Notes: generated by a model not told the origin, from the letters alone. A DNA stretch of 64,000 nucleotides from Candidatus Heimdallarchaeota archaeon (GCA_019057635.1 DXJL01000056.1:14774-78773); one strand, 5' to 3'; shown: positions 85 to 58,202, counted from the stretch's first letter. Program-made: numbers and translations.

Positions 85-765
85 TTATGACCTCAAACCT
101 TCTTCAATCTGTTTCCGCATCTCATCTAATTTCTTTTTGTCTGCTTCACGTTTTTTTCCAGTGGTGTTTTCTGATATTGGAGAACTAGGTGTTGCAGGAA
201 CACTTGTTTCACTTGCTGGAAGAGAACTCGATGATAATTCCGCTTCTAATTCCGCCATTTGCATAGATATTCGATCATCTGCTTCAACATCCATTCCGAT
301 TTCAGTTATCGAGGTATCTGTAAGAGAGTCCTCCATATCTGAAACCATTTCTATGGAATCCTCTAAGGACATCATTACTTCTTCTGTCCTTTCAGGTGAA
401 GCTGCTTCAACATTGCTATCAATTGCAATTTGTGCCTGCGCTAGTGTCTCTGTTAAAGTAACGTTATCTGCAGAAATATCAAGCGTTTCAATGATACGTT
501 GTAAGTTTGCTATCTTGCTATGAGTGTTCGTTGTCTGGGTCAAATATAGCTCACGTCGCTTCAGAGCTTGTTGAGCTCCAGGTTTGTTCCCAGATTTTAA
601 CAGTTTACGTGCTAACTCATATTGCTCATCAGATTGCCTTGAATAGTTTTTTACCTTTATTTCCATTTGATTTATAGTTCTTTTTAACTTCGCTTTTGTT
701 TCAGTTGATGAAGATGGTTTCGATCCCGTTAAAAACCCTTTAAGTCGTTTCACTTGTATTTTCAA
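85..765 (-). CDS. ESCRT-III subunit, Snf7 family (Vps20/32/60-like)
   Basis: 226 aa with a basic N-terminal helix, heptad-rich helical core and acidic C-terminal tail. Segment 'QQALKRRELYLTQTTNTHSKIANLQRIIETLD...TETLAQAQIAIDSN' matches the Snf7/CHMP core pattern. Confidence 0.75.
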   Translation of the reverse strand: MKIQVKRLKGFLTGSKPSSSTETKAKLKRTINQMEIKVKNYSRQSDEQYELARKLLKSGNKPGAQQALKRRELYLTQTTNTHSKIANLQRIIETLDISADNVTLTETLAQAQIAIDSNVEAASPERTEEVMMSLEDSIEMVSDMEDSLTDTSITEIGMDVEADDRISMQMAELEAELSSSSLPASETSVPATPSSPISENTTGKKREADKKKLDEMRKQIEEGLRS

Positions 766-964: not shown

Positions 965-1684
965 CTATCCTACGCCTGGAAATGATATTAATACACCATC
1001 TAAGGTATTAGATTTGATTGCTACTTTTTTATCTATCAACACTTCTATAGATCGTTCTACTCGTTCTATTGTCCAAGTTGATTTTTGAACTAATTCAGTC
1101 ATTGAAAGCTGGCCATTAGCCTGTGCTGCCAACTCAAGTATACGTTGATGATCTTGTGTCAGTTCTGGGTCAGTAAACTCGATAATTTTCATTCCTACGA
1201 GTGTTCGTATCTGATGAATTAATCCATTCGAAGTTAAAAGTTTCAAAGCGTTATTGACGTCTGAAATAGAAACCACAATTCCTTTACTTTCATCATTAAG
1301 CTTCAAGATTAATTCTGATACGCTTAAGATACCCCCTGTATGATTCCGTATCTGTTTACCAATCTCTATAATTCTTAGTCCTAAATAGTTAATATATTCA
1401 TCATTTCCCTGCAATCGTGATTTGAATGAAGGTCTATTACCTACATCATATATTCCAATTGCAAGAGGAAGTCCTAATTCCTCCCTTAGTTCCATAACCT
1501 TTTGGGCAAGGTCAGGATTCTTCTTAATATCAGAGTTGTACTGAGATTCAAGCTTCTGAAGTTCCTTGTGTAAATTTCTTATTTTTTTACTCATCTCTTT
1601 GAGAGACAAGAGGGCCAATTGACTACCCTTTACCTTCATTGCCGCTTCCTGAGTTATTTTCTCTTCTATACGTCTAAGGCCCAT
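965..1684 (-). CDS. ESCRT-II subunit, EAP30/Vps22/Vps36-like (tandem winged-helix)
   Basis: 239 aa with an N-terminal coiled coil followed by two winged-helix-like repeats. Neighbours are Snf7, Vps28-like and UEV genes. Confidence 0.6.
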   Translation of the reverse strand: MGLRRIEEKITQEAAMKVKGSQLALLSLKEMSKKIRNLHKELQKLESQYNSDIKKNPDLAQKVMELREELGLPLAIGIYDVGNRPSFKSRLQGNDEYINYLGLRIIEIGKQIRNHTGGILSVSELILKLNDESKGIVVSISDVNNALKLLTSNGLIHQIRTLVGMKIIEFTDPELTQDHQRILELAAQANGQLSMTELVQKSTWTIERVERSIEVLIDKKVAIKSNTLDGVLISFPGVG

Positions 1685-2024: not shown

Positions 2025-3371
2025 TTGGGTCTTAGTTCGTCTTCTTCTGAGTCGACGGGTTACTGTTCCTTTTGTGGTTCAGCACTCGTTTCTTCGGAGG
2101 TACACAAGTGTTTAGATTGTGGTGCTACTTTTTGTCAACAATGTGCAACACGATCTCTTATGACTGGTTCCCGACTCAAGTGTTCCTGTGGATCACCAAA
2201 TATTGACGCTTTTGACCACATTAAAAATGGAAAAGCGGACTTATTAGAAGAAATTTTCGTCCTTAAACGATCTCTCAAGCACGTAGGATATCGTCCTGTT
2301 ATTCTCTTAAAACGAACTGGCCAATTGGAGTCAAGATTACGTTCCTTTCGCAAACAATTTCTCATCCCTGGCAATTTGATTGACAAAATCTTTCTAGAGA
2401 CAAAGAAAATTGAAAATTTTACTTTGAATGAATTTCAGGAATATGCTTCAAAGCTCCAAAGAATCTACCATAATGTAGTACGTCACCCAATATCGGAGAA
2501 TTCTTTTCGTAACTCATCTTTGCAAATCTCTCTATTTCAAAAACATATAGCGAGCTTTGATCAGACGGTTGTATCGAAGCTTGAAACCATCTCCGCGCTT
2601 ATAGAACAAGTAGAGAAAAAATGTGATTTATTTGATGAAACACGAAAACACTTAGCCCGATGTCTCGATATTTTTGTTTTAATCCCAGGTGAATTGGGTA
2701 TTGGCTATTTTTCAAATTTAGATCTACATAATGATAGCTTTAGGAAGACTACTATTGATTTAATTATTACAACGGATAGGATTGTATTACTTCAGAAAAA
2801 GAGAACTAATGTTTTAAGCCATAAAACTATCATTTGCGATGAATTCTCTCCCAAAGCGCTACTGGATGTACAAAAAAAGAATTCTGGATTTTTAAAGCGG
2901 GATAAGCTTTTAATAACTGCTATTAAACGAGATTTTGTCATACAGTCTGATGCTCAAAATCTTATTCGGATATTCAATTCACTAAAGTTGAGTTATCTGG
3001 GTCGTCCAAGTGACTTGTATATCAATGAACCATTCCGTGATTGGTCTTCGGAAATTTATCAGGAAAAAATCCTTTCAGCATTAAATTTTCAGAACCATAA
3101 AAGTACCCCATCTTCCTCCAATAAGCATCCAAGTAAGAATCCAGAGAATATCCCAGATTTTATTAATGGTTTTTTAGAGGAAAGACTACGAGACTTGCGA
3201 ATTCATGAACTTGCATCAAAACGAGCTTTACAGGAACTAAAAGAAGGCCGTAAAAAAGTAGCGGGTCGTGAATATTTCGAACTCTTGAAACAATTTGAAT
3301 TTGAATTAGCGAAAATTGCTGAAGAAAGGACAGAGCTGCTTATAAGAACTGGTAAAACTAATCTTTTATGA
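2025..3371 (+). CDS. Zinc-finger (cross-brace/B-box-like) protein of unknown function within the ESCRT cluster
   Basis: TTG start. N-terminal 'CSFCGSALVSSEVHKCLDCGATFCQQC...KCSCGS' gives an 8-ligand Cys/His cross-brace arrangement, followed by ~400 aa that are mainly helical. It lies between the EAP30-like and Vps28-like genes. Confidence 0.45.
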   Translation: MGLSSSSSESTGYCSFCGSALVSSEVHKCLDCGATFCQQCATRSLMTGSRLKCSCGSPNIDAFDHIKNGKADLLEEIFVLKRSLKHVGYRPVILLKRTGQLESRLRSFRKQFLIPGNLIDKIFLETKKIENFTLNEFQEYASKLQRIYHNVVRHPISENSFRNSSLQISLFQKHIASFDQTVVSKLETISALIEQVEKKCDLFDETRKHLARCLDIFVLIPGELGIGYFSNLDLHNDSFRKTTIDLIITTDRIVLLQKKRTNVLSHKTIICDEFSPKALLDVQKKNSGFLKRDKLLITAIKRDFVIQSDAQNLIRIFNSLKLSYLGRPSDLYINEPFRDWSSEIYQEKILSALNFQNHKSTPSSSNKHPSKNPENIPDFINGFLEERLRDLRIHELASKRALQELKEGRKKVAGREYFELLKQFEFELAKIAEERTELLIRTGKTNLL

Positions 3372-3380
3372 GAACGATTC

Positions 3381-4001
3381 TTATAGATTTTTTAGTTCCC
3401 TTCTAAAGTCAGAAAGCCAGCGAGAACCTTGTAATTCTAATTTCTTAATCTCCTTGTTTTTCAATAATTGTCCTGGTTTTTGTTTATCCATCCAGTTAAT
3501 CCACTGATTTATGTCCTGTGTTACCCAATGATCATTTCCATACATTGGTGCTCTAACTACAATATCGTGAATTTCATCAAGATAGGGTAACACTCGATCA
3601 ACAGTTGCGATTGATTCTAAGTGTAGAAGATCTAGTAATTCAATCGCATTGGCTACAAACTCCGCAGCAATTGTTGGAAGTTTCTTTATGCTTGAATAAT
3701 CAATTCGACTATAAGCATTATCATCGGCTCCTTCAGTCATTTTGAGTTTTGAAAGACCCGAAGGGAAAAGTTGGCTAATTCCTTCTTCTTCAATAAATCG
3801 ATCAACATCAAAATTATACTGTTCTAACTCTGAACGTGTCTTTATAATACTAGTTAGAAGGGTTCTATGCTGTTTATGATATGTACTCGAATCGATCTCT
3901 CCACGATCATAAGTACGTGAAATTAAATCGAGGGTCCCAATATTCGCAAATAATCGGGCTTCTAGATCCCATCTGTGTGATAAGTTTTGAGGAAATGACA
4001 T
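3381..4001 (-). CDS. ESCRT-I subunit Vps28-like
   Basis: 206 aa. The N-terminal 'LFANIGTLDLISRTYDRGEIDSSTYHKQHRTLLTSI' resembles the Vps28 N-domain signature 'LYSIIKTLDHLEKAYVRD..EYT..C.RLL', and a C-terminal helical bundle follows. Confidence 0.6.
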   Translation of the reverse strand: MSFPQNLSHRWDLEARLFANIGTLDLISRTYDRGEIDSSTYHKQHRTLLTSIIKTRSELEQYNFDVDRFIEEEGISQLFPSGLSKLKMTEGADDNAYSRIDYSSIKKLPTIAAEFVANAIELLDLLHLESIATVDRVLPYLDEIHDIVVRAPMYGNDHWVTQDINQWINWMDKQKPGQLLKNKEIKKLELQGSRWLSDFRRELKNL

Positions 4002-4010
4002 TGTTTTTAC

Positions 4011-4754
4011 CTAGCTCAAGTATTCTAACTGTTTCCGAAGTAAATAAAGCTCTTTGGTATATTTCTTGTATAAACGTGAATATTCAAAGATTGAGATCTC
4101 ACCAGCAGCATATCTATCTTCTAATGATGATAGGAGATCAGAAATGGCAATTCTTTCAGATTCTAGCACTTGTTGATCGGTAACTTCCATTCTCAGAGTC
4201 TTTGATGACTCCTCGGAGCTCATCATGGACCTAGCTCTTAATCTGGCCAATTCTTCATCCTTTGCAGTTAATTGGGCATTTTTAGCGGTTAATTCTGTAC
4301 GTAATGCTTTTGTTTCTGCAGCTGATCTAGAATCTCTGTTTTCAATTGCTGGTTCAGTTATTCTCACCATAGTATCGCGTACTGACTTAGCTGTTTCTCC
4401 GCGCGGGGTTGGTGGTACACGAGACATAAGATTTTTTAAAGCAATAATCACCTGGTAGAGATGAAATTCCGCTCGCCAATTATCCAGAATCCGTAACTGA
4501 ATAAATCCATCTTTATCAATATTTGGATGATCCATCCACCCAATTGCAGTTACAACTGGAGGTACATTGGGAAAGTACTCTGGGAGGAAAATCTCAAATG
4601 TGAACATATTCCTTCCCCTGTTTGTTGTATAAGTTAATGTTCCTTGCCAACGAACAAGAGATTCTCCTACTGGATTGAATCCTGATGCAGCATTATTTGA
4701 ATATGTTAATTGTGCCTCTCTTGCTAATATAAAGTCTCTATCCATTAATTTCAC
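4011..4754 (-). CDS. ESCRT-I Vps23/TSG101-like protein (UEV domain, coiled coil, C-terminal steadiness-box-like region)
   Basis: UBC-fold signature 'HPNIDKDGFIQLRILDNW' with the catalytic Cys replaced, which makes it a ubiquitin E2 variant. A long coiled-coil stalk and conserved C-terminal helix follow. Confidence 0.7.
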   Translation of the reverse strand: MKLMDRDFILAREAQLTYSNNAASGFNPVGESLVRWQGTLTYTTNRGRNMFTFEIFLPEYFPNVPPVVTAIGWMDHPNIDKDGFIQLRILDNWRAEFHLYQVIIALKNLMSRVPPTPRGETAKSVRDTMVRITEPAIENRDSRSAAETKALRTELTAKNAQLTAKDEELARLRARSMMSSEESSKTLRMEVTDQQVLESERIAISDLLSSLEDRYAAGEISIFEYSRLYKKYTKELYLLRKQLEYLS

Positions 4755-4946: not shown

Positions 4947-6161
4947 TCATTTCTTTGCTGATTCAAAAAAGTCCATTACTGCCTCTCCCAATAACTCAAA
5001 TGCTAAATTGATATTTAAACCTGTTTTCGCACTTGTTGGGAGATAATGAATGTTAAAACCCCTATATTGCTTAGCCACATGAGAAAGTGTACTAGCAAAT
5101 TTTCTAGCTTTTGCATCAGAAACACCCATTACCCCTTCATCACGTAAATCCGCTTTATTTCCTAATATAATAATGGGAACTGGTCCCCTACCATTAAGTT
5201 TCCAAAATTCATTCATCCACCCAACAGTGTTTTGAAAACTCTCGACACGAGTGGTATCAAAAACCACAATAGCTCCCATAGCGGACATATAATAAGCTTT
5301 TCGGACTCCTTCAAACCGAGGCTGACCAGCAAGATCCCAAATTAAGTATTTGACTTGCCTTCCACCAGAATATAAAACGGGTGACTCTTTGCTCGCTAAA
5401 TCAGCTCCTATGGTCATCTGATAATCATTCCTGAACCCTTCTCCCAGATATTGTCTTCTAATCGATGTTTTTCCGACTGCACCGTCTCCGATTAGAATTA
5501 TTTTAAGTGTATGGCGTTCTTTAACAAAAGAAGCTTGAAAACCATCTATTGTTTTTAGTACTTCTTGTTCAAAGTCAGTACTTACCCGTAATCGCTCATC
5601 GGAGTACCGTTTCATGATCGTAACAATCTGTACTGCGAGCTGTCCTATTCTATCTCTAGTGATTTGTTTTGTTGTGACAATTGAAATTATGTATTTCTCC
5701 TCGATCACAAAGAAATGAATTATTTGAGATTCCAAGGACAATTCTTCAATGAGTTCCCCAAGTTTATGTCGAACGTAATTCTTCATCACATTTAAAATAA
5801 AACTCAAAGAAGTTTGGCAGCTAGCCTTATTTGAAAGACAAATCTCAAATAAAGGACGTCCAGAGTCCTTGAAACACGTTACCATCACTATTTCTTCAGT
5901 CTTTTGAGAGTGAAATAACCCAAATTCTTCGAATTTCTTCTGTTCTTCCTCCTCTGTTGGACGGGAATGGGAGTAGGCATCTTCTAGAATGTGAAGAAAA
6001 TCACCACCATCAGTTAACGCATTTTCTAAATCCACTTGTGCCTTTAAATAGAATTCTTCCATTTCCATGGCGGTAATATCTGATTCTATTTGTTTCTCAA
6101 GAATGGAAGTATAATCTGGGCTATCTTGGGGAGAAGACTTCCTATCATCTTCATCTGGCAT
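4947..6161 (-). CDS. Ras-superfamily small GTPase (Rab-like) with a ~190 aa N-terminal extension
   Basis: C-terminal G-domain motifs are present: G1 'GDGAVGKTS', switch-I Thr, G3 'WDLAGQ', G4 'GNKADL' and G5 'TSAKTG'. The N-terminal region could be a roadblock/longin-like fold. Confidence 0.8.
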   Translation of the reverse strand: MPDEDDRKSSPQDSPDYTSILEKQIESDITAMEMEEFYLKAQVDLENALTDGGDFLHILEDAYSHSRPTEEEEQKKFEEFGLFHSQKTEEIVMVTCFKDSGRPLFEICLSNKASCQTSLSFILNVMKNYVRHKLGELIEELSLESQIIHFFVIEEKYIISIVTTKQITRDRIGQLAVQIVTIMKRYSDERLRVSTDFEQEVLKTIDGFQASFVKERHTLKIILIGDGAVGKTSIRRQYLGEGFRNDYQMTIGADLASKESPVLYSGGRQVKYLIWDLAGQPRFEGVRKAYYMSAMGAIVVFDTTRVESFQNTVGWMNEFWKLNGRGPVPIIILGNKADLRDEGVMGVSDAKARKFASTLSHVAKQYRGFNIHYLPTSAKTGLNINLAFELLGEAVMDFFESAKK

Positions 6162-6361
6162 AGTTTATCTCCATTTCAATTTGGGGTCTGATATATTAGA
6201 GTCCCTGTTCCTTAAATATTGCACTATATTTCAGGAACGAAAAAAATGAAATCCAATTCGTAGACCAAACAGATTTCTTTTATATTGAATAAGTTTTTTT
6301 GGTTGCTTCCTATTGAGGTGAAAAGGAATTAATTTTAACTGGATAAAAATTAATTCAGAAC

Positions 6362-7366
6362 TTATTCAAATTTAGAAAACAACCAAGGGATTATATACGC
6401 GATACAAAAAGCTATTACGAAATACGACAAAAAGTTGGTTACTTGAGTAATCCATACGAGTTCAGACTGGAAAATCATCGCAAAATCTTCAATTCCCTTC
6501 GCTGCAAAATATAAAACCACAACTGAGACAAATCCAAATATTACGCGAAAGAAAACGCTTCCTCTGCTCAAATTCTTAGTTGTAAACTTCACATGTTTTA
6601 ATTCTAATACTTGGCCAACAACAATACCTGCGAACAGACCAGGGTATGTTCCCAGATCAGTTTCAACCCATACCCCTGGATCAGATAATGATATTGATTC
6701 ATTAAAAGGAAAAATCGTTCCAAGTACGAAAGCTATGAAACCTAGAATGATCAAGAGGCCACTAAATAATATACCGAACATAATTTTCTTGGTGTCAGTC
6801 CATACCTCAATCCTGGATCCTAGATAAGGCTCAATCTTGATATATGCCCATGATAGAATAACACCAAATAATACACCAACGACAATGTCGCTTGGCCAAT
6901 GGACTCCTAAATACGATCTACTTAGAGGAATGGAAATTAAGAGCACAATACCTACAACGAATAAGGGTACATGTTTTACTTTCTTAATGATATAACCCCA
7001 GATAGTTCCTTGGACTTGAGAATGTCCTGATGGGAAAGAAAAACCTTCTGCACCCCAAATTGTCTCTTGATTGAGTACATTTGTAGTAACCTGAAACTTT
7101 TCTGCATTATATACGTAGGGGCGAGGATTATGAAAAAAGATCTTTGCTACAGAGTTTAAGTGAGCTGAGAACACGAGTAAATAAATTAATCTAGGTATTA
7201 ACTCTTTATTCAATGTATAATAAAGTAGTACTAAGATTATCAAAATAGGTAACGTGTTTCCAAGAGTTGTCAAAACTCCAAAGTAAATATCAAAGAACAT
7301 ATTTGATATACCTTGAATTAACTGTAATATACTCTCGCCTAAAGGGCCAAATAACAGATCGGACAT
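6362..7366 (-). CDS. PAP2-family membrane phosphatase (phosphatidic acid phosphatase type 2)
   Basis: Multi-TM protein carrying the three PAP2 motifs: 'KIFFHNPRP' (KxxxxxxRP), 'PSGH' and 'SRSYLGVHWPSD' (SRxxxxxHxxxD). Confidence 0.75.
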   Translation of the reverse strand: MSDLLFGPLGESILQLIQGISNMFFDIYFGVLTTLGNTLPILIILVLLYYTLNKELIPRLIYLLVFSAHLNSVAKIFFHNPRPYVYNAEKFQVTTNVLNQETIWGAEGFSFPSGHSQVQGTIWGYIIKKVKHVPLFVVGIVLLISIPLSRSYLGVHWPSDIVVGVLFGVILSWAYIKIEPYLGSRIEVWTDTKKIMFGILFSGLLIILGFIAFVLGTIFPFNESISLSDPGVWVETDLGTYPGLFAGIVVGQVLELKHVKFTTKNLSRGSVFFRVIFGFVSVVVLYFAAKGIEDFAMIFQSELVWITQVTNFLSYFVIAFCIAYIIPWLFSKFE

Positions 7367-7550
7367 GATTTCGGACCAGTTTGGATGAAGTATAAAAGAT
7401 TACATTTAAACTTTCTTCCAAATTAATATAAGAATAAGGCGAGTTCTTCTTCATAACATTCTTAGAAATGAAAATAATTATCAATAAGTGAATTTGATAA
7501 ATCATTATTCCATAATCAGAGAAGTACCCGTCTTTTCGAAGTGATCTCTC

Positions 7551-8300
7551 GTGAGTGAATCTGAATCAATCGTATGTCCAAATTGTAGTGAAAGAAGTCC
7601 AGCTGGATATATTTTGTGCCCCTACTGTGGATTTGATCTAACAAAGATACTGCGTCAAAAACAAAGAATAGGTCTAACTTTCAAAGAACGATTTTCACGT
7701 ATATGGAGAAGTCTTTCAGATCCTCGTGATAGTAAAATTCTGTTTAATGAAATTGGTGTTAATCCAGATCGACTAGGAGTTATTATCTTATTGTACCTAT
7801 TATCGGTCTCATATGCAACCCGGATTGGAGCTTTTGTAATTAAAGCAAGTAACACGACTTGGCATGATTTTCATTTCATTTACTTCCTCATTCTTCCTTG
7901 GCTCGCAGGAATAGCTTTTCTTATATTGGCATTGTTTGGCTGGATTATTACTACACTTGTCATTTGGCTAATAGCTAAAACACTTGGTGGAAAAGCCAGC
8001 TTGCGAGATACATATAGTATTGTAGGTTATTCATTAGGGCCACTTATCACTGCTTCTTTAGTTGTTTCCATTTTTATCATCTTGTTGGGTAGTCCCCTCA
8101 ATACTGTTGACAATACCACTTGGATGAATTATGCTATTTTTGAAATCATATACCTACCGTTTCTAGCAGTATGTGCTTATCATTGTGGTAATGGTCTCCA
8201 ATCTGGACATCTGCTAAATCCTACCTACTCCTACATAATTTCAGGCGCAATAGCGGGAGGTTTTGCTTTATTTTACCTTATTATTCCCATTATTCTTTGA
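7551..8300 (+). CDS. Zinc-ribbon–Yip1-domain membrane protein
   Basis: N-terminal 'CPNCSERSPAGYILCPYCGFDL' zinc ribbon followed by a 5-TM Yip1/DUF1282-like hydrophobic core. Confidence 0.5.
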   Translation: MSESESIVCPNCSERSPAGYILCPYCGFDLTKILRQKQRIGLTFKERFSRIWRSLSDPRDSKILFNEIGVNPDRLGVIILLYLLSVSYATRIGAFVIKASNTTWHDFHFIYFLILPWLAGIAFLILALFGWIITTLVIWLIAKTLGGKASLRDTYSIVGYSLGPLITASLVVSIFIILLGSPLNTVDNTTWMNYAIFEIIYLPFLAVCAYHCGNGLQSGHLLNPTYSYIISGAIAGGFALFYLIIPIIL

Positions 8301-8319: not shown

Positions 8320-9360
8320 TTAAGAATCAAAAGTTACTTGGAACTTCAACGGTTTAGACAAAGAGGGATCTATTACACGAACAATATCTGCAGATTTTAG
8401 TACCGTCGATAATTTTTCCTTGGAGGAGTCAATTTTTACTGTTCCATGGATCATGACCATTTCCTTTCCAAGATTGAAAGAATAACGTAACTGAGTAACA
8501 AAATCATTGATTTGTTGGTCTAATGCTGATCTTACAGGAATTGCATTCAGTTGATATTCACTAGAGCATACAAAGCAGTTTTTACGCCTTGAAAGTTCGA
8601 TAGCAGTAAATACTCCAACTGAACCATCCCAAAATAAGTAATCTTTGAGTGGTGATAATTTTAAGAGGATTTTCAACGCTTCTTGAGCCATTAATCCTCC
8701 TATCACAAACGATACGCTTGAGACTGATGGAATATTCTCTTCTGCAGGTTCTTCTTGACGAACTTCTTTTCTTCCCTCCCCAAAAGGAGTACAAGCTTTC
8801 TGTAATTCTTCTTCTGGGATTAATGATTGACACTCCAAGCATGCATTCTCATGAGGGATTATTACCTGTATGTTTCCTAAGAATCCAAACATTCCTCCTG
8901 AAACTAATGGAATGTTATGTTCAACAATATATGAATTGACCCATCTTCGATCAATGAATGTATCCAACCCTTCTACAATAACAGATACTGATTCCAAGTC
9001 AGATTGTGGAACATCCTGTATCTTCATGTTAAGTGCTGTAATTTTTAACTCGGAATTAATTTTCAATAACTCTCGAGTGGCTACTTCTACTTTAGATTTA
9101 CCAATATCATCCATTCGGAATAGTAATTGCCGATTTAAATTACTTATTTCGATCGTGTCAAAATCAACTAATATAAACTCTCCTACTCCCGCCATTGCTA
9201 GTGAAACAGCTGCTACTAATCCTAATGCACCCATCCCTACTATTATAACCTTACCTTCACGAATTTTATCCTGATTCCAATTTTCTATCAAAACTTGCCT
9301 GTCATAGCGAATAGTTTGGGAATCGTGAGTAAATATATCCATTTTTCCTACCCGAATCAA
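8320..9360 (-). CDS. E1-like ubiquitin-activating enzyme (ThiF/MoeB/UBA family) with C-terminal extension
   Basis: 'YDRQ' motif, Rossmann 'VGMGALG' nucleotide-binding loop and a Cys in 'NACLEC'. It has ~100 extra C-terminal residues relative to MoeB. Confidence 0.8.
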   Translation of the reverse strand: MIRVGKMDIFTHDSQTIRYDRQVLIENWNQDKIREGKVIIVGMGALGLVAAVSLAMAGVGEFILVDFDTIEISNLNRQLLFRMDDIGKSKVEVATRELLKINSELKITALNMKIQDVPQSDLESVSVIVEGLDTFIDRRWVNSYIVEHNIPLVSGGMFGFLGNIQVIIPHENACLECQSLIPEEELQKACTPFGEGRKEVRQEEPAEENIPSVSSVSFVIGGLMAQEALKILLKLSPLKDYLFWDGSVGVFTAIELSRRKNCFVCSSEYQLNAIPVRSALDQQINDFVTQLRYSFNLGKEMVMIHGTVKIDSSKEKLSTVLKSADIVRVIDPSLSKPLKFQVTFDS

Positions 9361-9565: not shown

Positions 9566-9808
9566 TTAACGAACTATTCCGCCAGTTGTTCTTGTAATCA
9601 TATATAATTTATCTAGATCTTCTATCCCTGCTGATTTTAAGGTCTCGCTCTCATCAAGCTGCTTCCCCTGAAATACAAGAATGACTGAACGAGCAGGAAT
9701 TCGTTTTTGTTGAGCAACTCGCTCTTTAATTGATGCCAAAGATTCTGTTTTCTCACAGGTGAGCGTAATCTGTCCTCCTCCAATTGCCTGAACGATATTT
9801 ATCTGCAT
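9566..9808 (-). CDS. Ubiquitin-like protein encoded as a precursor (..TTGG-IVR)
   Basis: 80 aa that align along their length with ubiquitin (MQI...IPA...FQGKQLDE...L....GG). A di-Gly is followed by 3 extra residues. Confidence 0.8.
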   Translation of the reverse strand: MQINIVQAIGGGQITLTCEKTESLASIKERVAQQKRIPARSVILVFQGKQLDESETLKSAGIEDLDKLYMITRTTGGIVR

Positions 9809-9987: not shown

Positions 9988-10788
9988 CTATTCATCATCA
10001 TCTGCTTCGAGAAATATTATCCCGTCATTTGTGATCTGAAATGTCAATGTTTTAGTAGTATGTTTTGTTCCTCTCATTTTACTGATTCTGAGGATTCGCA
10101 TCATTTCTCCTCGTACTGACAGCATATCCAGATGAATTATCGAATCGGCAATATACTCTTCTCCAAAGATCGAAGTGCCTGTATTACTTGGTAATTCTGA
10201 TATTGCGAGTGTGGTTACATTTAGTGAAGCAATATTAGCTAAAAAGCCTGTAGTTAATTTCCTTAAGAAACCCTGATCATTACCATAGTCATAAAATCGA
10301 AATGCCGCTAGAGGGTCAATAACAATGCGTTCAATTTTCTTTTCTTCCACAACTTGACTTATATGATAAAAGACTCTATGTAGGAATGTTGGTAAGGAAG
10401 TCTCATCATATGGCACACCTTCGGCTTCAATGACAAAAGGAGAGCCTTCTGTTAAATTAAGACTATCAGGATCCCATAATTCCCAACCTGAAGGAGTAAA
10501 ATCAAGCATAACTATTTTTTCTGGTTCAACATAGTGATTATGATCAAAAAAAGAAAAATTACTCGCATCACGACGAATAGCCCATGGAGGTTCCTGCATA
10601 GCTACAAGTAGACCATTTTCATTCTTTAATGCTCCTTCTGACAGAAAATGCAATCCGAAGATAGTTTTTCCAGCTCCAGCAGGTCCAATAATCAGATTTG
10701 TTGTACCTTTGATAAGGCCGCCTTGTGTAAGCTCATCTAAATAAGGAATACCACTAGTTACTCGTATTTTTTCGAACAAGTGTAGCAC
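9988..10788 (-). CDS. KaiC-like RecA-superfamily ATPase
   Basis: N-terminus 'GIPYLDELTQGGLIKGTTNLIIGPAGAGKTIFGLHF' is the KaiC/RadB-type Walker A context. Confidence 0.7.
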   Translation of the reverse strand: MLHLFEKIRVTSGIPYLDELTQGGLIKGTTNLIIGPAGAGKTIFGLHFLSEGALKNENGLLVAMQEPPWAIRRDASNFSFFDHNHYVEPEKIVMLDFTPSGWELWDPDSLNLTEGSPFVIEAEGVPYDETSLPTFLHRVFYHISQVVEEKKIERIVIDPLAAFRFYDYGNDQGFLRKLTTGFLANIASLNVTTLAISELPSNTGTSIFGEEYIADSIIHLDMLSVRGEMMRILRISKMRGTKHTTKTLTFQITNDGIIFLEADDDE

Positions 10789-10968
10789 ACATATCCTCTA
10801 AGGGGATCTGGTGAAAAATAGTACCCCACTCCTTATTAGTTGAACTCAATTCAAGGGAACCAAAATACTATCTTAGAATTGAAAATTAATATTCTAAAAC
10901 GCGTAAAAAAGGTTTAAACTTAGCTAGATTTGTCTATAAGGATAAATCTTAATATTTTCATTTGATTT

Positions 10969-11538
10969 TCAAATTTGGGTTTGCTCAACCACAACTTTAC
11001 GATATTTTATCATTTCTTCTACTAGATACTCAAAAGCTACTTCAAGATTTTCACCACTTCGAATCCCACCAGGATCTGTCGCTACAGTGCCAAAAATTTG
11101 ATATGCATACTCCTTTAGATGAGCTTCAACAAATGCTTTGTGAATAAAGTCTGGAGATAATGCTATAGGTAAGTCCTGTTTATTTGCTATTACTAAGATT
11201 GGTATCTTGCCAGGTATTAAACGTAATGCTTCATCTAACCACTGTTCATCGTATCTAAAGTTTCTTTGTGAACTATCTATGACAAAAACAATTCCATCAG
11301 CAGTACGAACAAAGCGTTCATGATACCGCATATCTAAAAATCTCTTCTGCCCGCCCACATCGATTAAACCCAATAACGTAGATCCAATCTCGACATGAGA
11401 GATTCCAAAGGCAATCGTTGGTTTTATATTACCTGGTGCGGGATAACCATGTTCTAAGTAAAAGGCGATGGAGGATTTTCCCACTCCACTTGTACCGAGT
11501 AATATTACCGAGAATATGTTTTCAGATGATGTTTGCAT
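10969..11538 (-). CDS. Arf/Arl-like small GTPase
   Basis: P-loop 'GTSGVGKSS' and the Arf-type G3 'DVGGQ' and G4 'NKQD' motifs. Confidence 0.8.
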   Translation of the reverse strand: MQTSSENIFSVILLGTSGVGKSSIAFYLEHGYPAPGNIKPTIAFGISHVEIGSTLLGLIDVGGQKRFLDMRYHERFVRTADGIVFVIDSSQRNFRYDEQWLDEALRLIPGKIPILVIANKQDLPIALSPDFIHKAFVEAHLKEYAYQIFGTVATDPGGIRSGENLEVAFEYLVEEMIKYRKVVVEQTQI

Positions 11539-11762: not shown

Positions 11763-12158
11763 TTGTGGATTAAAATGGATAAAAAATCTCGTGAAATCAA
11801 AATTGAATCTTTGAAAACTCCAAAAGGAGACGTACCGACTGTTAAAGGATTGGAAACGGTAATTGATTCAGTCTTTTCTGAATATGGAAAAATAGAAAAC
11901 AGGTTCAATATGCTTCAACAAAAATTGGAAACCGTTTCAAAAGAAATCGCGAGTCAATCAGGTCTCATAACCGATCTGAGTAAAAGTTTCTCTGATTTAA
12001 TTGTAATATTAGGAAATTTAGACCGTAAAATTGAACAACAGCAATCTATTACAACCAATAACCGACATATTGAAACAATTGATTTATTAACATTGAAAAA
12101 GGACTTATCACGGATTCTCAGCAAATTAGAGTCGCTAATGACAACAAATGAGAGGTAG
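11763..12158 (+). CDS. Coiled-coil hypothetical protein
   Basis: 131 aa with heptad-like periodicity and no recognisable catalytic motif. Confidence 0.35.
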   Translation: MWIKMDKKSREIKIESLKTPKGDVPTVKGLETVIDSVFSEYGKIENRFNMLQQKLETVSKEIASQSGLITDLSKSFSDLIVILGNLDRKIEQQQSITTNNRHIETIDLLTLKKDLSRILSKLESLMTTNER

Positions 12159-12249
12159 ACACACTCTTATGGGACAAATCATTCAGTACAAAATTAAATT
12201 CACTCTCGAAGGCTCTATATACCGAAAAAAGTGGATGGAGAATTAAAAT

Positions 12250-12462
12250 ATGAAAGGGAATCGAATAAAATTAATTTCTCGCCCCATTGGAAACTGGGAT
12301 CCATTTCAAACCTCCTCACGGTGTATTATCTGTTGGAAGCCTGTTAAAGATAACGATCCATTAATGGAATGTCCCCACTGCCATAGTAGAGCCCATCAAG
12401 AACATATGCTACGTTGGTTAGCAAAGAAGAATTATTGTCCTTACTGCAATAAAAAGTGGTAA
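12250..12462 (+). CDS. Small RING-like zinc-finger protein (putative E3-like)
   Basis: 'CIICW...x13...CPHCHSRAHQEH...CPYC' has cross-brace Cys/His spacing reminiscent of RING-H2/RING-variant. It is translationally coupled to the next ORF. Confidence 0.45.
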   Translation: MKGNRIKLISRPIGNWDPFQTSSRCIICWKPVKDNDPLMECPHCHSRAHQEHMLRWLAKKNYCPYCNKKW

Positions 12463-12463
12463 T

Positions 12464-12919
12464 ATGAACGAAATAACGTACTTACCTATAGTTCTCCAAG
12501 AACTGGTACAGGCACTAGAAAATCATCTGGACCAATTAACACCAAATCGCAAAAGAACATTACCTGTTAAGATAAAGAAACAGAATCAAAATACCATTAT
12601 AACTTGGAATATCTACTCTGAGCCTCAAAAGGAAATTACAGGAATATTCTCTGATTTACAGAAAATAATTTCACAAATTCTTGAACAACCTCTAGATGGC
12701 GAGCTCATTTATTTTGAAATTAAAAAGGGTCAAATTATTGATGCAGGAATTAATGCTTTTTCCATTAAACAAGGTTTTTCTTGGGATTTATACCTTTACC
12801 AACCTGAAACGTTTGTATACGTACGTTTGCTACATGAAACAAATCTTGACAGTTGTATCGATGCATGGATTTCAATTGATATTGACCTAATTGAAAACTC
12901 TGCTTGGTTTCTTGATTGA
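12464..12919 (+). CDS. Hypothetical protein (coupled to the RING-like ORF)
   Basis: ATG overlaps the upstream stop (TAATATGA). No recognisable motifs. Confidence 0.4.
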   Translation: MNEITYLPIVLQELVQALENHLDQLTPNRKRTLPVKIKKQNQNTIITWNIYSEPQKEITGIFSDLQKIISQILEQPLDGELIYFEIKKGQIIDAGINAFSIKQGFSWDLYLYQPETFVYVRLLHETNLDSCIDAWISIDIDLIENSAWFLD

Positions 12920-12929
12920 AGAAATGACT

Positions 12930-13874
12930 TCAGATAATGCTCCATCGTTTTGAATGAATTTCATAATGGGTACGGCCCTCATTCTCCATCTCCCTTAGAA
13001 ACGCCGTTACAGTTGTTGATGCCACTCCTAACTCTTCAAATGGGGAATCCCAAGATATTCCAATAGTGTTAAGGTATTCTTCGGCGATGTAATAGGTTTT
13101 CGCTTCTCCTACACTTACAAGTATATCATATATTGTATCTTTCGTGTGTTTGTGCTCAAATATCAAATTGTGCAGGTATAAATCGAAAGGATGTGGAACA
13201 GGACTCTGGTGAGCAGGACAAATAATATCTGTAGATAAATTAGACAACATTTTCAGCACTTTCAACCGTTTCTGAGAATCTCCAGTACCATCTATGAAGA
13301 ATGAGGCAGGTTTTTCTGGAGCAATATTTCCTTCATCGCCTATGAATGTACACTTGGCTGAATAGGCTTGAATTAAGAGAGAATCTTTAGAATGTCCCCC
13401 TGTTGATTGCAAAATTAGTTCTTCAGACCCTAAATCAATTGTTTCACTATCACTAATACGTGTAATGAGTTCTTCTTTTACTTTCCCAATTTTTGAGAAG
13501 AGAGATGATTTCATTGCTAACCTAAATTTTGAAGGATTTGGGAATTGCTTATCCAATATATATTTTTGTCCTTCGGTTAGGGCTTTTATTCCTGACTCAT
13601 GAATTACGATTTGTGGTTTTATCTTTGATAGTGCGCTAATACCCGCCCAATGATCAGGATGAGTATGGGTTAGAATTATGTATTTGATATCCGAAGTATC
13701 TCTACCTGCTTTTTTAATGAAAGAAATTATGTCCTTTCCAACGGATCTCGAGGGTAAATCAATTATTGCTATCTTTTCCCCCATGACCAAATAGCTAGCA
13801 AATTCTTCTTTTTGTTTACCTGTTTTCCCTATAATCCGAAATACTCCAGGAGCCCATTCTACGAAGTTCCCCAT
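12930..13874 (-). CDS. Metallo-beta-lactamase-fold hydrolase
   Basis: 'ILTHTHPDHWAG' HxHxDH metal-binding motif. Confidence 0.75.
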   Translation of the reverse strand: MGNFVEWAPGVFRIIGKTGKQKEEFASYLVMGEKIAIIDLPSRSVGKDIISFIKKAGRDTSDIKYIILTHTHPDHWAGISALSKIKPQIVIHESGIKALTEGQKYILDKQFPNPSKFRLAMKSSLFSKIGKVKEELITRISDSETIDLGSEELILQSTGGHSKDSLLIQAYSAKCTFIGDEGNIAPEKPASFFIDGTGDSQKRLKVLKMLSNLSTDIICPAHQSPVPHPFDLYLHNLIFEHKHTKDTIYDILVSVGEAKTYYIAEEYLNTIGISWDSPFEELGVASTTVTAFLREMENEGRTHYEIHSKRWSII

Positions 13875-36499: not shown

Positions 36500-36572
36500 A
36501 GCCGCTGGTGGGACTTGAACCCACGACCAACAGATTACAAATCTGTCGCTCTACCAACTAAGCCACAGCGGC
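36500..36572 (-). tRNA. tRNA-Thr (TGT)
   Basis: Reverse complement GCCGCTGTGGCTTAGTTGGTAGAGCGACAGATTTGTAATCTGT...GGGTTCAAGTCCCACCAGCGGCT gives a perfect cloverleaf. Anticodon loop is TTTGTAA. Confidence 0.85.
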
Positions 36573-43952: not shown

Positions 43953-44065
43953 AGGGACGTAGTCTAGCATGGTTTTAATTGCTTTCTGAATTAACACAGA
44001 GGTAATGACTAGATGATTCTTGGTTTGGGACCAAGAGGTCGCGGGTTCGAATCCCGTCGTCCCTA
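43953..44065 (+). tRNA. Candidate tRNA-Pro (TGG) with a ~38 nt non-canonical intron in the D-arm region
   Basis: Perfect 7-bp acceptor AGGGACG/CGTCCCT, discriminator A, anticodon arm CTTGG-TTTGGGA-CCAAG (G37) and T-arm GCGGG-TTCGAAT-CCCGT. The D-arm is interrupted by an insert flanked by the TAGTC/GACTA helix. I could not place the exact splice junctions. Confidence 0.4.
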
Positions 44066-57931: not shown

Positions 57932-58006
57932 AAAAAATAAACGGATCCGGAGGGATTTGAACCCACGACATTCTGCTCCGAAGGCAGACGCTCTATCCAT
58001 GCTGAG
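57932..58006 (-). tRNA. tRNA-Arg (TCG)
   Basis: Reverse complement GGATCCGTGGCTCAGCATGGATAGAGCGTCTGCCTTCGGAGCAGA...GGGTTCAAATCCCTCCGGATCCG. 7-bp acceptor, anticodon loop CTTCGGA and one U:U mismatch in the T-stem. Confidence 0.8.
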
Positions 58007-58202
58007 CCACGGATCCAGTAAAATTAACTTCACATGTTTTGTAAAAAGCACTTTCTAGAGTAGATTAGGAGACAATAGTTAGATTAATAAGAATTTATTG
58101 GAAACCAGATTCATTACTTAGTTTGTCATGGAGGAAGTCTTTTCTAATTTTAAACAGTTTTACTGTTTATTTTCAGAATTTAAGACTGGAAGGGGAATTT
58201 AC

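Follow-up and report, generated by a model that had tools for sequence, protein, structure and literature searches.

A longin-fused Rab-like GTPase, a PAP2 phosphatase and a zinc-ribbon Yip1 protein at the ESCRT-I/ubiquitin junction of a Hodarchaeales gene cluster

Comparison with described systems

The genes of the ubiquitin system and of ESCRT (the endosomal sorting complexes that are required for transport) of Asgard archaea have been described as a cluster with a core of Snf7, Vps4, Vps25, EAP30, Vps28, ubiquitin E2 variant (UEV), E1, ubiquitin, E2 and RING genes (Zaremba-Niedzwiedzka 2017; Hatano et al. 2022, PMC9192718; bioRxiv 10.1101/2023.07.25.550441). The same core is shared by the locus described here, a stretch of 64,000 nucleotides from Candidatus Heimdallarchaeota archaeon (GCA_019057635.1 DXJL01000056.1:14774-78773; “the window” in the following, with positions counted from its first letter), in which a trio of genes for a Rab-like GTPase, a PAP2 phosphatase and a Yip1-family membrane protein (positions 4947 to 8300) has ESCRT-I (UEV, Vps28) on one side and E1 and ubiquitin on the other. 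Membership of Yip1 and a Rab-like GTPase in the cluster of Hodarchaeia has already been stated in a preprint (bioRxiv 10.1101/2023.07.25.550441), beyond which no other mention of it was encountered in the literature searched; Hatano et al. (PMC9192718) plotted the cluster of B3_Heim and left the trio genes unannotated. In the same literature we found no description of a longin domain on the cluster GTPase, of its acidic helical region, of the turnover of the PAP2 slot or of a deeper linkage of Yip1 with E1 and ubiquitin, nor of the invariant zinc ribbon and GY...P motif of the Yip1 protein or of a neighbouring pair of an Arf-like GTPase and a KaiC-like ATPase. The longin domain, acidic region, ribbon, PAP2 slot and Yip1–E1/ubiquitin linkage are refinements of known kinds and do not constitute a new kind of system.

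Linkage in the genomes compared follows a distinct order: Yip1 stays with E1 or ubiquitin in all 24 Heimdallarchaeia-type loci, with the longin-GTPase in the main clade only, and PAP2 is facultative. We tentatively regard the trio as lineage-specific accessory genes of the Hodarchaeales ubiquitin–ESCRT supercluster, situated at the ESCRT-I/ubiquitin junction, and not as a self-contained trafficking operon; to this reading, taken together with the mechanism proposed for it below, we give slightly less than an even chance. The host lineage is Hodarchaeales: the window, with ~35% GC in its genome, encodes proteins that are 91-100% identical to proteins of metagenome-assembled genomes (MAGs) labelled Candidatus Hodarchaeales, and it is collinear with its nearest relative, Heimdallarchaeota archaeon B3_Heim, at 94-97% DNA identity.

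A longin-fold domain on a small GTPase, as found here, has been reported before for Asgard archaea, and 26/74 of the small GTPases of MK-D1 carry roadblock or longin domains (Liu et al. bioRxiv 10.1101/2020.10.19.343400; Tran et al. 2024, PMC10933270). However, the described fusions mostly belong to the Rag/Arf-like class, whereas the cluster GTPase is Rab-like by sequence and by structure, carries its longin domain N-terminally, after a conserved acidic helical region, and is fixed inside the ESCRT cluster. In the Rag–roadblock GTPases the roadblock domain is C-terminal, and in SRα (SRX longin)–SRβ, TRAPP/Mon1-Ccz1 and DENN the longin domain resides on a separate polypeptide, in contrast to the N-terminal fusion in cis of the cluster GTPase. 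With the eukaryotic Rabs, of which Ypt7/Rab7 are closest, the protein has the G1-G5 motifs, a Rab-type fold and 30-34% identity in common, but it possesses neither their hypervariable C-terminal tail nor a prenylatable Cys and has a 215-aa N-terminal extension.

The Yip1 protein resembles the eukaryotic YIPF proteins (Yip1p/Yif1p) in its Pfam Yip1 domain, which scores above threshold, in spanning the membrane several times and, putatively, in a cytosolic N-terminus. Three YIPF motifs, around the first and in the third transmembrane segment, have been defined (PMC6682643); motif 3 (φφGYxφφP) recurs in the cluster protein with the same G-to-P spacing as yeast G175-P180, and motifs 1 and 2 are partly matched. 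Unlike in YIPF proteins, the N-terminus is a zinc ribbon and not an acidic EPPLEE-type region, and no second Yip1-domain gene that might encode a Yif1-like partner was found in the cluster across the mapped loci. The protein belongs with the prokaryotic Yip1 proteins of the COG2881/arCOG02054 type, which are without known function (PMC5898192, PMC6682643). The phosphatase shares the C1/C2/C3 motifs and the membrane-embedded core of the PAP2 lipid phosphatases (PgpB, undecaprenyl-/dolichyl-diphosphatases, LPPs) but scores far below the NCBIfam equivalog cut-offs (36.8 bits vs 250) and carries an extra C-terminal membrane extension of ~150 aa.

The three proteins of the trio

A preliminary description of the window had placed three such genes directly beyond the ESCRT genes, and all three were recovered there as open reading frames (ORFs) with Pfam support. 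Their domains were delimited by alignment, by Pfam and with AlphaFold2 (AF2) models:

4947-6161, minus strand: longin–Rab-like GTPase, 404 aa (ORF and Pfam)
5925..6119, minus strand: its conserved acidic helical region, aa 15-79 (alignment and AF2)
5613..5891, minus strand: its predicted longin domain, aa 91-183, β-β-α-β-β-β-α (AF2 and structure comparison)
4950..5510, minus strand: its Rab-like G domain, aa 218-404 (G1-G5 intact; DLAGQ holds the catalytic Gln)
6362-7366, minus strand: PAP2 phosphatase, 334 aa (ORF and Pfam)
7551-8300, plus strand: zinc-ribbon Yip1 (ZnR-Yip1) polytopic membrane protein, 249 aa (ORF and Pfam)
7575..7628, plus strand: its Cys4 zinc ribbon C9-P-N-C12...C23-P-Y-C26, aa 9-26 (alignment)
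7710..8279, plus strand: its Yip1 domain, aa 54-243 (Pfam and alignment)

The assignment of the first protein as a Rab/Ras-like GTPase with intact G1–G5 is confirmed by its match to Pfam Ras (PF00071; aa 220-395, E=3.3e-36, 124.8 bits against a cut-off of 21.6), with the Ras, Roc and Arf matches together covering aa 214-395, and by motifs that are invariant in 40 aligned homologues (GDGAVGKT, T250, DLAGQ, NKAD as the NKxD motif, and SAK), as is the switch-II Gln; the enzyme is predicted to be catalytically competent. Some 57 full-length homologues are at least 53% identical to it. Rabs are the closest relatives of the G domain in both sequence and structure; between G4 and G5, its α4 region exceeds that of eukaryotic Rabs in length. 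The RabF1-F5 family motifs of Pereira-Leal & Seabra are markers of eukaryotic Rabs, and in a comparison by eye with these motifs (TIGADL/IGVDF, KYLIW/KLQIW, RFEGVR/RFRSIT, YYMSA/YYRGA and VVFDTT/LVYDIT) ~2-4 positions of each agree. Instead of a hypervariable tail with a prenylation motif (CC, CXC or CAAX) the C-terminus reads ...AVMDFFESAKK, with no Cys in its last 20 aa and no C-terminal Cys in any homologue of the 40-sequence alignment; a hydrophobicity scan revealed no hydrophobic or transmembrane segment, as for a soluble protein. Judged from its sequence, the GTPase is Rab-like but falls short of a defining Rab feature, prenylation.

The N-terminal extension of the GTPase comprises ~215 aa, not the ~190 estimated at first, and is conserved from Met1 across the ~57 full-length homologues; it is, therefore, not a start-codon artefact. 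Its acidic region includes a near-invariant EMEEFxLKVxVDLExAL stretch, with E35, E36, K40, L45, E46, A48 and D54 conserved. AF2 models of the full-length protein (mean predicted local distance difference test score, pLDDT, 76.8) and of the N-terminal part alone (74.4) have the same layout, i.e., a disordered tip, helices at aa 15-79 of moderate to low pLDDT, a confident β-β-α-β-β-β-α unit at aa 91-183 (pLDDT 83-91) and a helix at aa 195-217 leading into the G domain. The unit has the longin topology, and longin domains are its best structural matches. No Pfam match at E<=10 was obtained for aa 1-215 or aa 87-215, the N-terminal profile retrieved nothing relevant from the PDB sequences (only a spurious FtsH match, E=0.11), and a word-indexed search for homologues, made with the N-terminal alignment, was uninformative, as it brought up only 3 family members; the longin call is one of fold and not of sequence profile. 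With the full-length model no PDB chain covering both the longin and the G domain was found by Foldseek (TMq <= 0.38). Roadblock/LC7 (PF03259; α-β-β-α-β-β-β-α), the other fold suggested initially, was rejected, as there is no PF03259 match and roadblock proteins are not the best structural matches; the model indicates a longin domain in its place. Of the profile searches recommended in the preliminary description, those for Ras and Yip1 gave matches above the cut-offs, and neither a longin nor a roadblock match was obtained on the extension.

That the third gene encodes a Yip1-family polytopic protein with an N-terminal zinc ribbon, as originally described, is well supported by its Pfam match (PF04893; E=3e-12, 47.2 bits against a cut-off of 28.6, profile positions 3-170 of 173) and by 55 orthologues of at least 49% identity. 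A Kyte-Doolittle scan showed four clear segments (77-95, 123-141, 162-180 and 229-247) and a possible fifth at about aa 195-215. The ribbon, CPNC-x10-CPYC, lies in a nearly invariant MSESESxxCPNCxERSPxGYxLCPYCG stretch, and its Pfam matches are limited to generic zinc-ribbon models, all below cut-off. The N-terminal 33 residues are almost invariant among orthologues that are otherwise only ~60% identical, which implies a conserved cytosolic binding surface, and from the alignment the ribbon appears to be under strong purifying selection. The equivalent of YIPF motif 3 is IVGYSLGPL (I157-V-G159-Y160-S-L-G-P164), in which G159 and Y160 are invariant and P164 is at least 90% conserved, while for motifs 1 (R50...P58) and 2 (P72-D73-x-L-G76) the match is only approximate, the residues being shifted by one position or differently ordered. 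When 1.84 billion representatives were searched exhaustively with hmmsearch, 112 relatives emerged at E<=1e-3, of which 42 reached E<=1e-10. The 20 hit clusters of which the names were looked up are all environmental, those named being Hodarchaeales, Heimdall-, Njord- and Hermodarchaeota and one Korarchaeota-labelled sequence; no eukaryotic name occurred among these 20 (of the 112 relatives), and eukaryotic YIPF was apparently not reached by the profile. Between the window and B3_Heim the Yip1 protein is 85% identical and, thus, less conserved than its neighbours (94-99%).

The second protein matches PAP2 (PF01569; aa 60-181, E=1.4e-20, 73.8 bits), and its catalytic motifs K75xxxxxxRP, PSGH112 (starting at P112) and SR149xxxxxHxxxD (starting at S149) are intact, as they are in all 13 copies at the orthologous slot. 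No Pfam family match was found for the C-terminal extension. Among NCBIfam models the phosphatase comes closest to those for undecaprenyl-diphosphatase and PgpB, with 31-37 bits where the cut-offs are 229-261. The protein is, therefore, predicted to be a lipid phosphate/pyrophosphate phosphatase of the PAP2 superfamily, for which “phosphatidate phosphatase”, the name given to it at first, is a superfamily label that does not establish specificity.

Gene order in the main clade and beyond

A Yip1-based scan of one genome per GTDB species, with loci mapped by tblastn and blastp, gave 19 Hodarchaeales-type loci (the main clade), 16 of which are informative in that the GTPase-side flank is present. 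In all 16, and in the window, the longin-GTPase adjoins Yip1 or is separated from it by PAP2 only, and on its other side Yip1 directly borders E1 in 19/19. Four divergent GTPase orthologues (54-59% identical overall, 39-45% in the N-terminal part) have the same arrangement, one of them on the 4.9-Mb closed chromosome CP070695. An order of ~16 genes (Snf7, EAP30, a 448-aa Zn-finger protein, Vps28, UEV, longin-GTPase, [PAP2], Yip1, E1, ubiquitin, KaiC-like ATPase, Arf-like GTPase, orf131, RING, orf151 and a metallo-β-lactamase-fold protein) is collinear in the 16 informative species genomes at protein identities down to ~40-60%, and collinearity reaches ribosomal protein S2, RNA polymerase subunit N, RimK and RadA. 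Within the Hodarchaeales-type lineage the juxtaposition of GTPase and Yip1 exceeds chance, and the co-occurrence that the preliminary description proposed to check holds for these two genes; for the three genes together it holds only in part, with PAP2 present in 12/16 informative loci and absent from 4/16. Several of the MAGs carrying the Hodarchaeales-type supercluster in identical order at 60-80% protein identity (L013, L014, L016, L018, L026 and others) are labelled Thor-, Hermod- or Promethearchaeota in NCBI, and the submitter taxonomy of these records looks unreliable.

The PAP2 gene occurs in two types in opposite orientations, which share only ~31% identity over ~314 columns. Type A runs in the direction of the GTPase gene (50-72% identity among its members) and is found in basal lineages, whereas type B lies ~100 bp upstream of Yip1, in whose direction it runs (58-79% identity among its members), and is confined to one nested clade in a tree of concatenated cluster proteins (unweighted pair group method with arithmetic mean, UPGMA). 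In B3_Heim (NJBF01000010.1) a clean 906-bp deletion (window 6417-7322 missing, compared with L010 9752-9772) has taken out almost all of the PAP2 gene and left ~50-bp stubs at each end, in DNA that is 94-97% identical on both sides. This deletion, one of three losses of PAP2 in that tree, may be either genuine and recent or an error of the assembly. Where PAP2 is missing, GTPase and Yip1 form a divergent pair ~160-200 bp apart. In one Hodarchaeota MAG (L019, 700-5430) 5 kb of unrelated, metabolic genes are inserted between PAP2 and Yip1, with translations that resemble a transporter of the MFS type, a glyoxalase, two aldo/keto-reductases and, possibly, a helix-turn-helix regulator. The turnover of PAP2 and this insert mark the GTPase–Yip1 junction as an indel hotspot that has mostly kept a PAP2 gene; from the sequence comparisons PAP2 itself appears to be a variable filler, the slot having survived a single replacement or inversion.

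Beyond the main clade lie five ZnR-Yip1 loci of greater divergence (26-36% identity):

L058: UEV-Vps28, then Yip1 followed by E1 (co-directional), and EAP30
L059: Vps28-UEV, β-CASP, Yip1, E1, ubiquitin, RING
L060: Yip1 beside ubiquitin; UEV and Vps28 5 kb away
L061: ubiquitin, Yip1, E1 and, further on, E2
L062: Yip1 followed by E1 (co-directional, 22-bp gap), then a DCC1-like gene and a 301-aa GTPase

The longin-GTPase and PAP2 are absent from the neighbourhood in all five. Over all Heimdallarchaeia-type loci, E1 adjoins Yip1 in 23/24 and ubiquitin in the remaining one (L060), with ubiquitin also its neighbour in L061. Since Yip1 lies beside E1 or ubiquitin also where there is no longin-GTPase, it seems to be tied first to the ubiquitin system. 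The GTPase of L062 (P0071; 2347-3252), three genes from the Yip1–E1 pair, carries a same-subfamily G domain (51% identical), with a helical N-extension and no longin domain. It is one of several GTPases of 300-320 aa (P0071, P0084, P0064, P0069 and P0076) that have the signature WDLAGQP..F, ELWK..G.GP and GF.V.YLPTSAKTGLN in common; proteins of this type bear helical or low-complexity N-extensions without longin. For the distant longin-GTPase relatives P0061 and P0063 (<=42% identity) no Yip1 or ESCRT neighbours were seen on the short contigs concerned. In Njordarchaeia the same ZnR-Yip1 architecture occurs among ribosomal protein genes and TatD.

In the window the trio is flanked by the following genes:

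85-765, minus strand: Snf7 (Pfam)
965-1684, minus strand: EAP30 (Pfam)
2025-3371, plus strand: 448-aa Cys-rich protein with an N-terminal Cys-rich finger (ORF)
3381-4001, minus strand: Vps28 (Pfam VPS28)
4011-4754, minus strand: UEV/E2-like protein (Pfam UQ_con/UEV)
8320-9360, minus strand: ubiquitin E1-like ThiF protein (Pfam ThiF, E=8.7e-59)
9566-9808, minus strand: ubiquitin (Pfam)

The UEV/E2-like and Vps28 genes form an ESCRT-I-like pair (3381..4754, minus strand, 9 bp between them) and are neighbours in all loci. The 448-aa protein, whose gene lies between those of EAP30 and Vps28 throughout the main-clade loci (44-98% identity) and is detectable in L058 and L059, gives sub-threshold matches to C1, FYVE and RING and is an unannotated constant member of the ESCRT cluster. 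Beyond ubiquitin, a KaiC-like ATPase (PF06745, E=2e-45) and a 189-aa Arf/Arl-like GTPase are encoded as an adjacent pair (window 9988-11538, minus strand) that is kept in every main-clade locus; the latter has Arl2 and Arf1 as its best PDB matches and no long N-terminal amphipathic helix. With it the supercluster has both a Rab-like and an Arf-like GTPase. The Arf-like GTPase is followed at 11763-13874 by orf131 (coiled-coil-like), a 70-aa RING finger (PF13639), orf151 (no family match) and a metallo-β-lactamase-fold protein, a block found in all main-clade loci and partly in L058-L060, which is probably the E3 side of the ubiquitin system. The window also contains three tRNA matches, at 36500-36572 and 57942-58016 on the minus strand and at 43996-44065 on the plus strand, the last barely at the Rfam gathering score (29.5 vs 29 bits).

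Possible roles of the trio

In the accessory-gene reading, the ZnR-Yip1 protein would be a membrane-embedded platform of the ubiquitin–ESCRT system, at which the invariant zinc-ribbon N-terminus would dock soluble products of the cluster, be they the ubiquitin machinery, ESCRT-I and/or the GTPase. As the GTPase is without a lipid anchor, it would need a protein partner to reach the membrane, where it may serve as a nucleotide switch gating when and where ubiquitin–ESCRT remodelling happens. Its longin domain might act in cis on the switch regions, as do the longin platforms in TRAPP, Mon1-Ccz1, DENN and SRα-SRβ, or might alternatively be a dimerisation module, like the roadblock domains in Rag GTPases. 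PAP2, where present, would locally dephosphorylate a polyprenyl or phospholipid phosphate and would be dispensable. The occurrence of a GTPase of the same subfamily near Yip1 and E1 in the rearranged context of L062 counts in favour of this reading, as do the conserved gene order of the main clade, the Yip1–E1/ubiquitin link beyond it, the purifying selection on the ribbon and the retention of the PAP2 slot.

Several observations weigh against this reading. The absence of the longin-GTPase from the five divergent loci means that the GTPase is not obligatory for the function of Yip1, and PAP2 was lost three times in the UPGMA tree. The layout is not that of a tight operon: spacers of 184-200 bp separate the GTPase, PAP2 and Yip1 genes, and the Yip1 gene is divergent, so that co-transcription is not implied; a TATA-box scan of the upstream regions gave no clear-cut result. 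All main-clade loci fall within one order, with ~25 genes collinear, and the adjacency could, therefore, be inherited rather than selected. The ribbon has no RanBP2/NZF match in Pfam and no Thr-Phe after the second Cys. Rate covariation over 9 taxa (partial correlation) has the G domain as the best partner of Yip1 (0.53), a signal that is weak and is not used as evidence. In the same sample of 9 genomes, which is too small and non-independent to interpret, Vps28 and the longin domain covary most strongly (0.76), above any Yip1 pair, a hint that makes ESCRT-I a candidate partner for the longin domain.

A less likely explanation, although the strongest of the alternatives, is that ZnR-Yip1 is part of the ubiquitin system instead of going with the GTPase, the longin-GTPase and PAP2 being later, independent insertions at the ESCRT-I/ubiquitin junction. 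Yip1 could then serve E1/E2/RING as a receptor at the membrane, be itself a ubiquitylated cargo, or carry a ubiquitin- or Vps28-binding finger like the NZF of yeast Vps36. The near-universal E1 or ubiquitin neighbour of Yip1, the co-directional Yip1–E1 pairs of L062 and L058, and the indels at the GTPase–Yip1 junction (gain, loss and inversion of PAP2, and the 5-kb insert of L019) all agree with this, as does the CxxC-x10-CxxC spacing of the ribbon, which equals that of NZF/RanBP2 fingers. However, an NZF/ubiquitin-binding finger is unsupported by profiles and lacks the ubiquitin-binding dipeptide, and it is kept here as a conjecture only. Furthermore, Yip1 and E1 are convergent, tail to tail, in the main clade (with a 19-bp gap in the window) and, thus, not co-transcribed, and every main-clade genome has kept the GTPase next to Yip1.

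The juxtaposition had initially been considered more than coincidental because eukaryotic Yip1 proteins interact with Rabs, and the trio may be read accordingly as an archaeal counterpart of the Ypt/Rab–Yip1 pair, a proto-trafficking module like Yip1p–Ypt1p in which Yip1 recruits or releases the GTPase at the membrane and PAP2 tunes the lipid. The constant adjacency in the 16 informative genomes stands, and the Rab-like G domain closest to Ypt7/Rab7, the GY...P motif of Yip1, the requirement of an anchor-less GTPase for a protein receptor, the related GTPase near Yip1–E1 in L062 and the weak rate covariation between Yip1 and the G domain would all fit such a pair. The eukaryotic logic itself, however, found no specific support. 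Binding of Rabs to yeast Yip1p depends on Rab prenylation, and the GTPase has no C-terminal Cys that could carry the prenyl group. Yip1 remains beside E1 or ubiquitin without the GTPase in 4-5 of the divergent loci, the ZnR-Yip1 of Njordarchaeia has neither GTPase nor ESCRT context, the affinity of Yip1 is prokaryotic, and the exhaustive search apparently did not arrive at eukaryotic YIPF. In addition, small GTPases make up ~2% of Asgard genes (PMC10307638), so that one within a few genes is not rare, and the role of YIPF–Rab binding has itself been questioned (PMC6682643). We consider this explanation improbable. Still more doubtful is a scenario in which a Rab-like switch without lipid anchor is recruited by a Yip1-family receptor through the zinc ribbon and the longin/acidic-helix module, the pair gating ubiquitin-dependent engagement of ESCRT-I as a prenylation-independent forerunner of Rab/Yip1 and of the link between Rab7 and ESCRT at endosomes, while a lipid phosphatase would tune the target membrane.

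It is likewise improbable that the trio merely hitch-hikes, without functional relation of its genes to each other or to ESCRT and ubiquitin, in a slowly rearranging block inherited within one order. In favour of this view, collinearity runs past the ESCRT/ubiquitin genes to ribosomal protein S2 and RadA, each trio gene has its own upstream spacer of ~190 bp, PAP2 is dispensable and unrelated cargo can insert at the junction. Against it, Yip1 keeps its E1/ubiquitin neighbour in five divergent loci with other genes shuffled, the PAP2 slot was refilled or kept through inversion with all motifs intact, and gene order has persisted at ~40-60% protein identity.

Hodarchaeales is the archaeal order currently placed nearest to the eukaryotes, and Asgard small GTPases are abundant and generally without lipid anchors. 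The locus bears on the questions of how these GTPases reach membranes and which membrane proteins partner the ubiquitin–ESCRT system, and it nominates clonable candidates for both, i.e., a Yip1-type protein with an invariant zinc ribbon next to E1 and ubiquitin and, beside ESCRT-I, a Rab-like switch with a fused longin domain. If Yip1 and the GTPase do not interact, the cluster would simply be an elaboration of one lineage, and reading “Yip1 next to Rab” in the eukaryotic way would have to be given up; if they do, membrane recruitment of the Rab–Yip1 type and its coupling to ubiquitin and ESCRT would predate both eukaryotes and prenylation.

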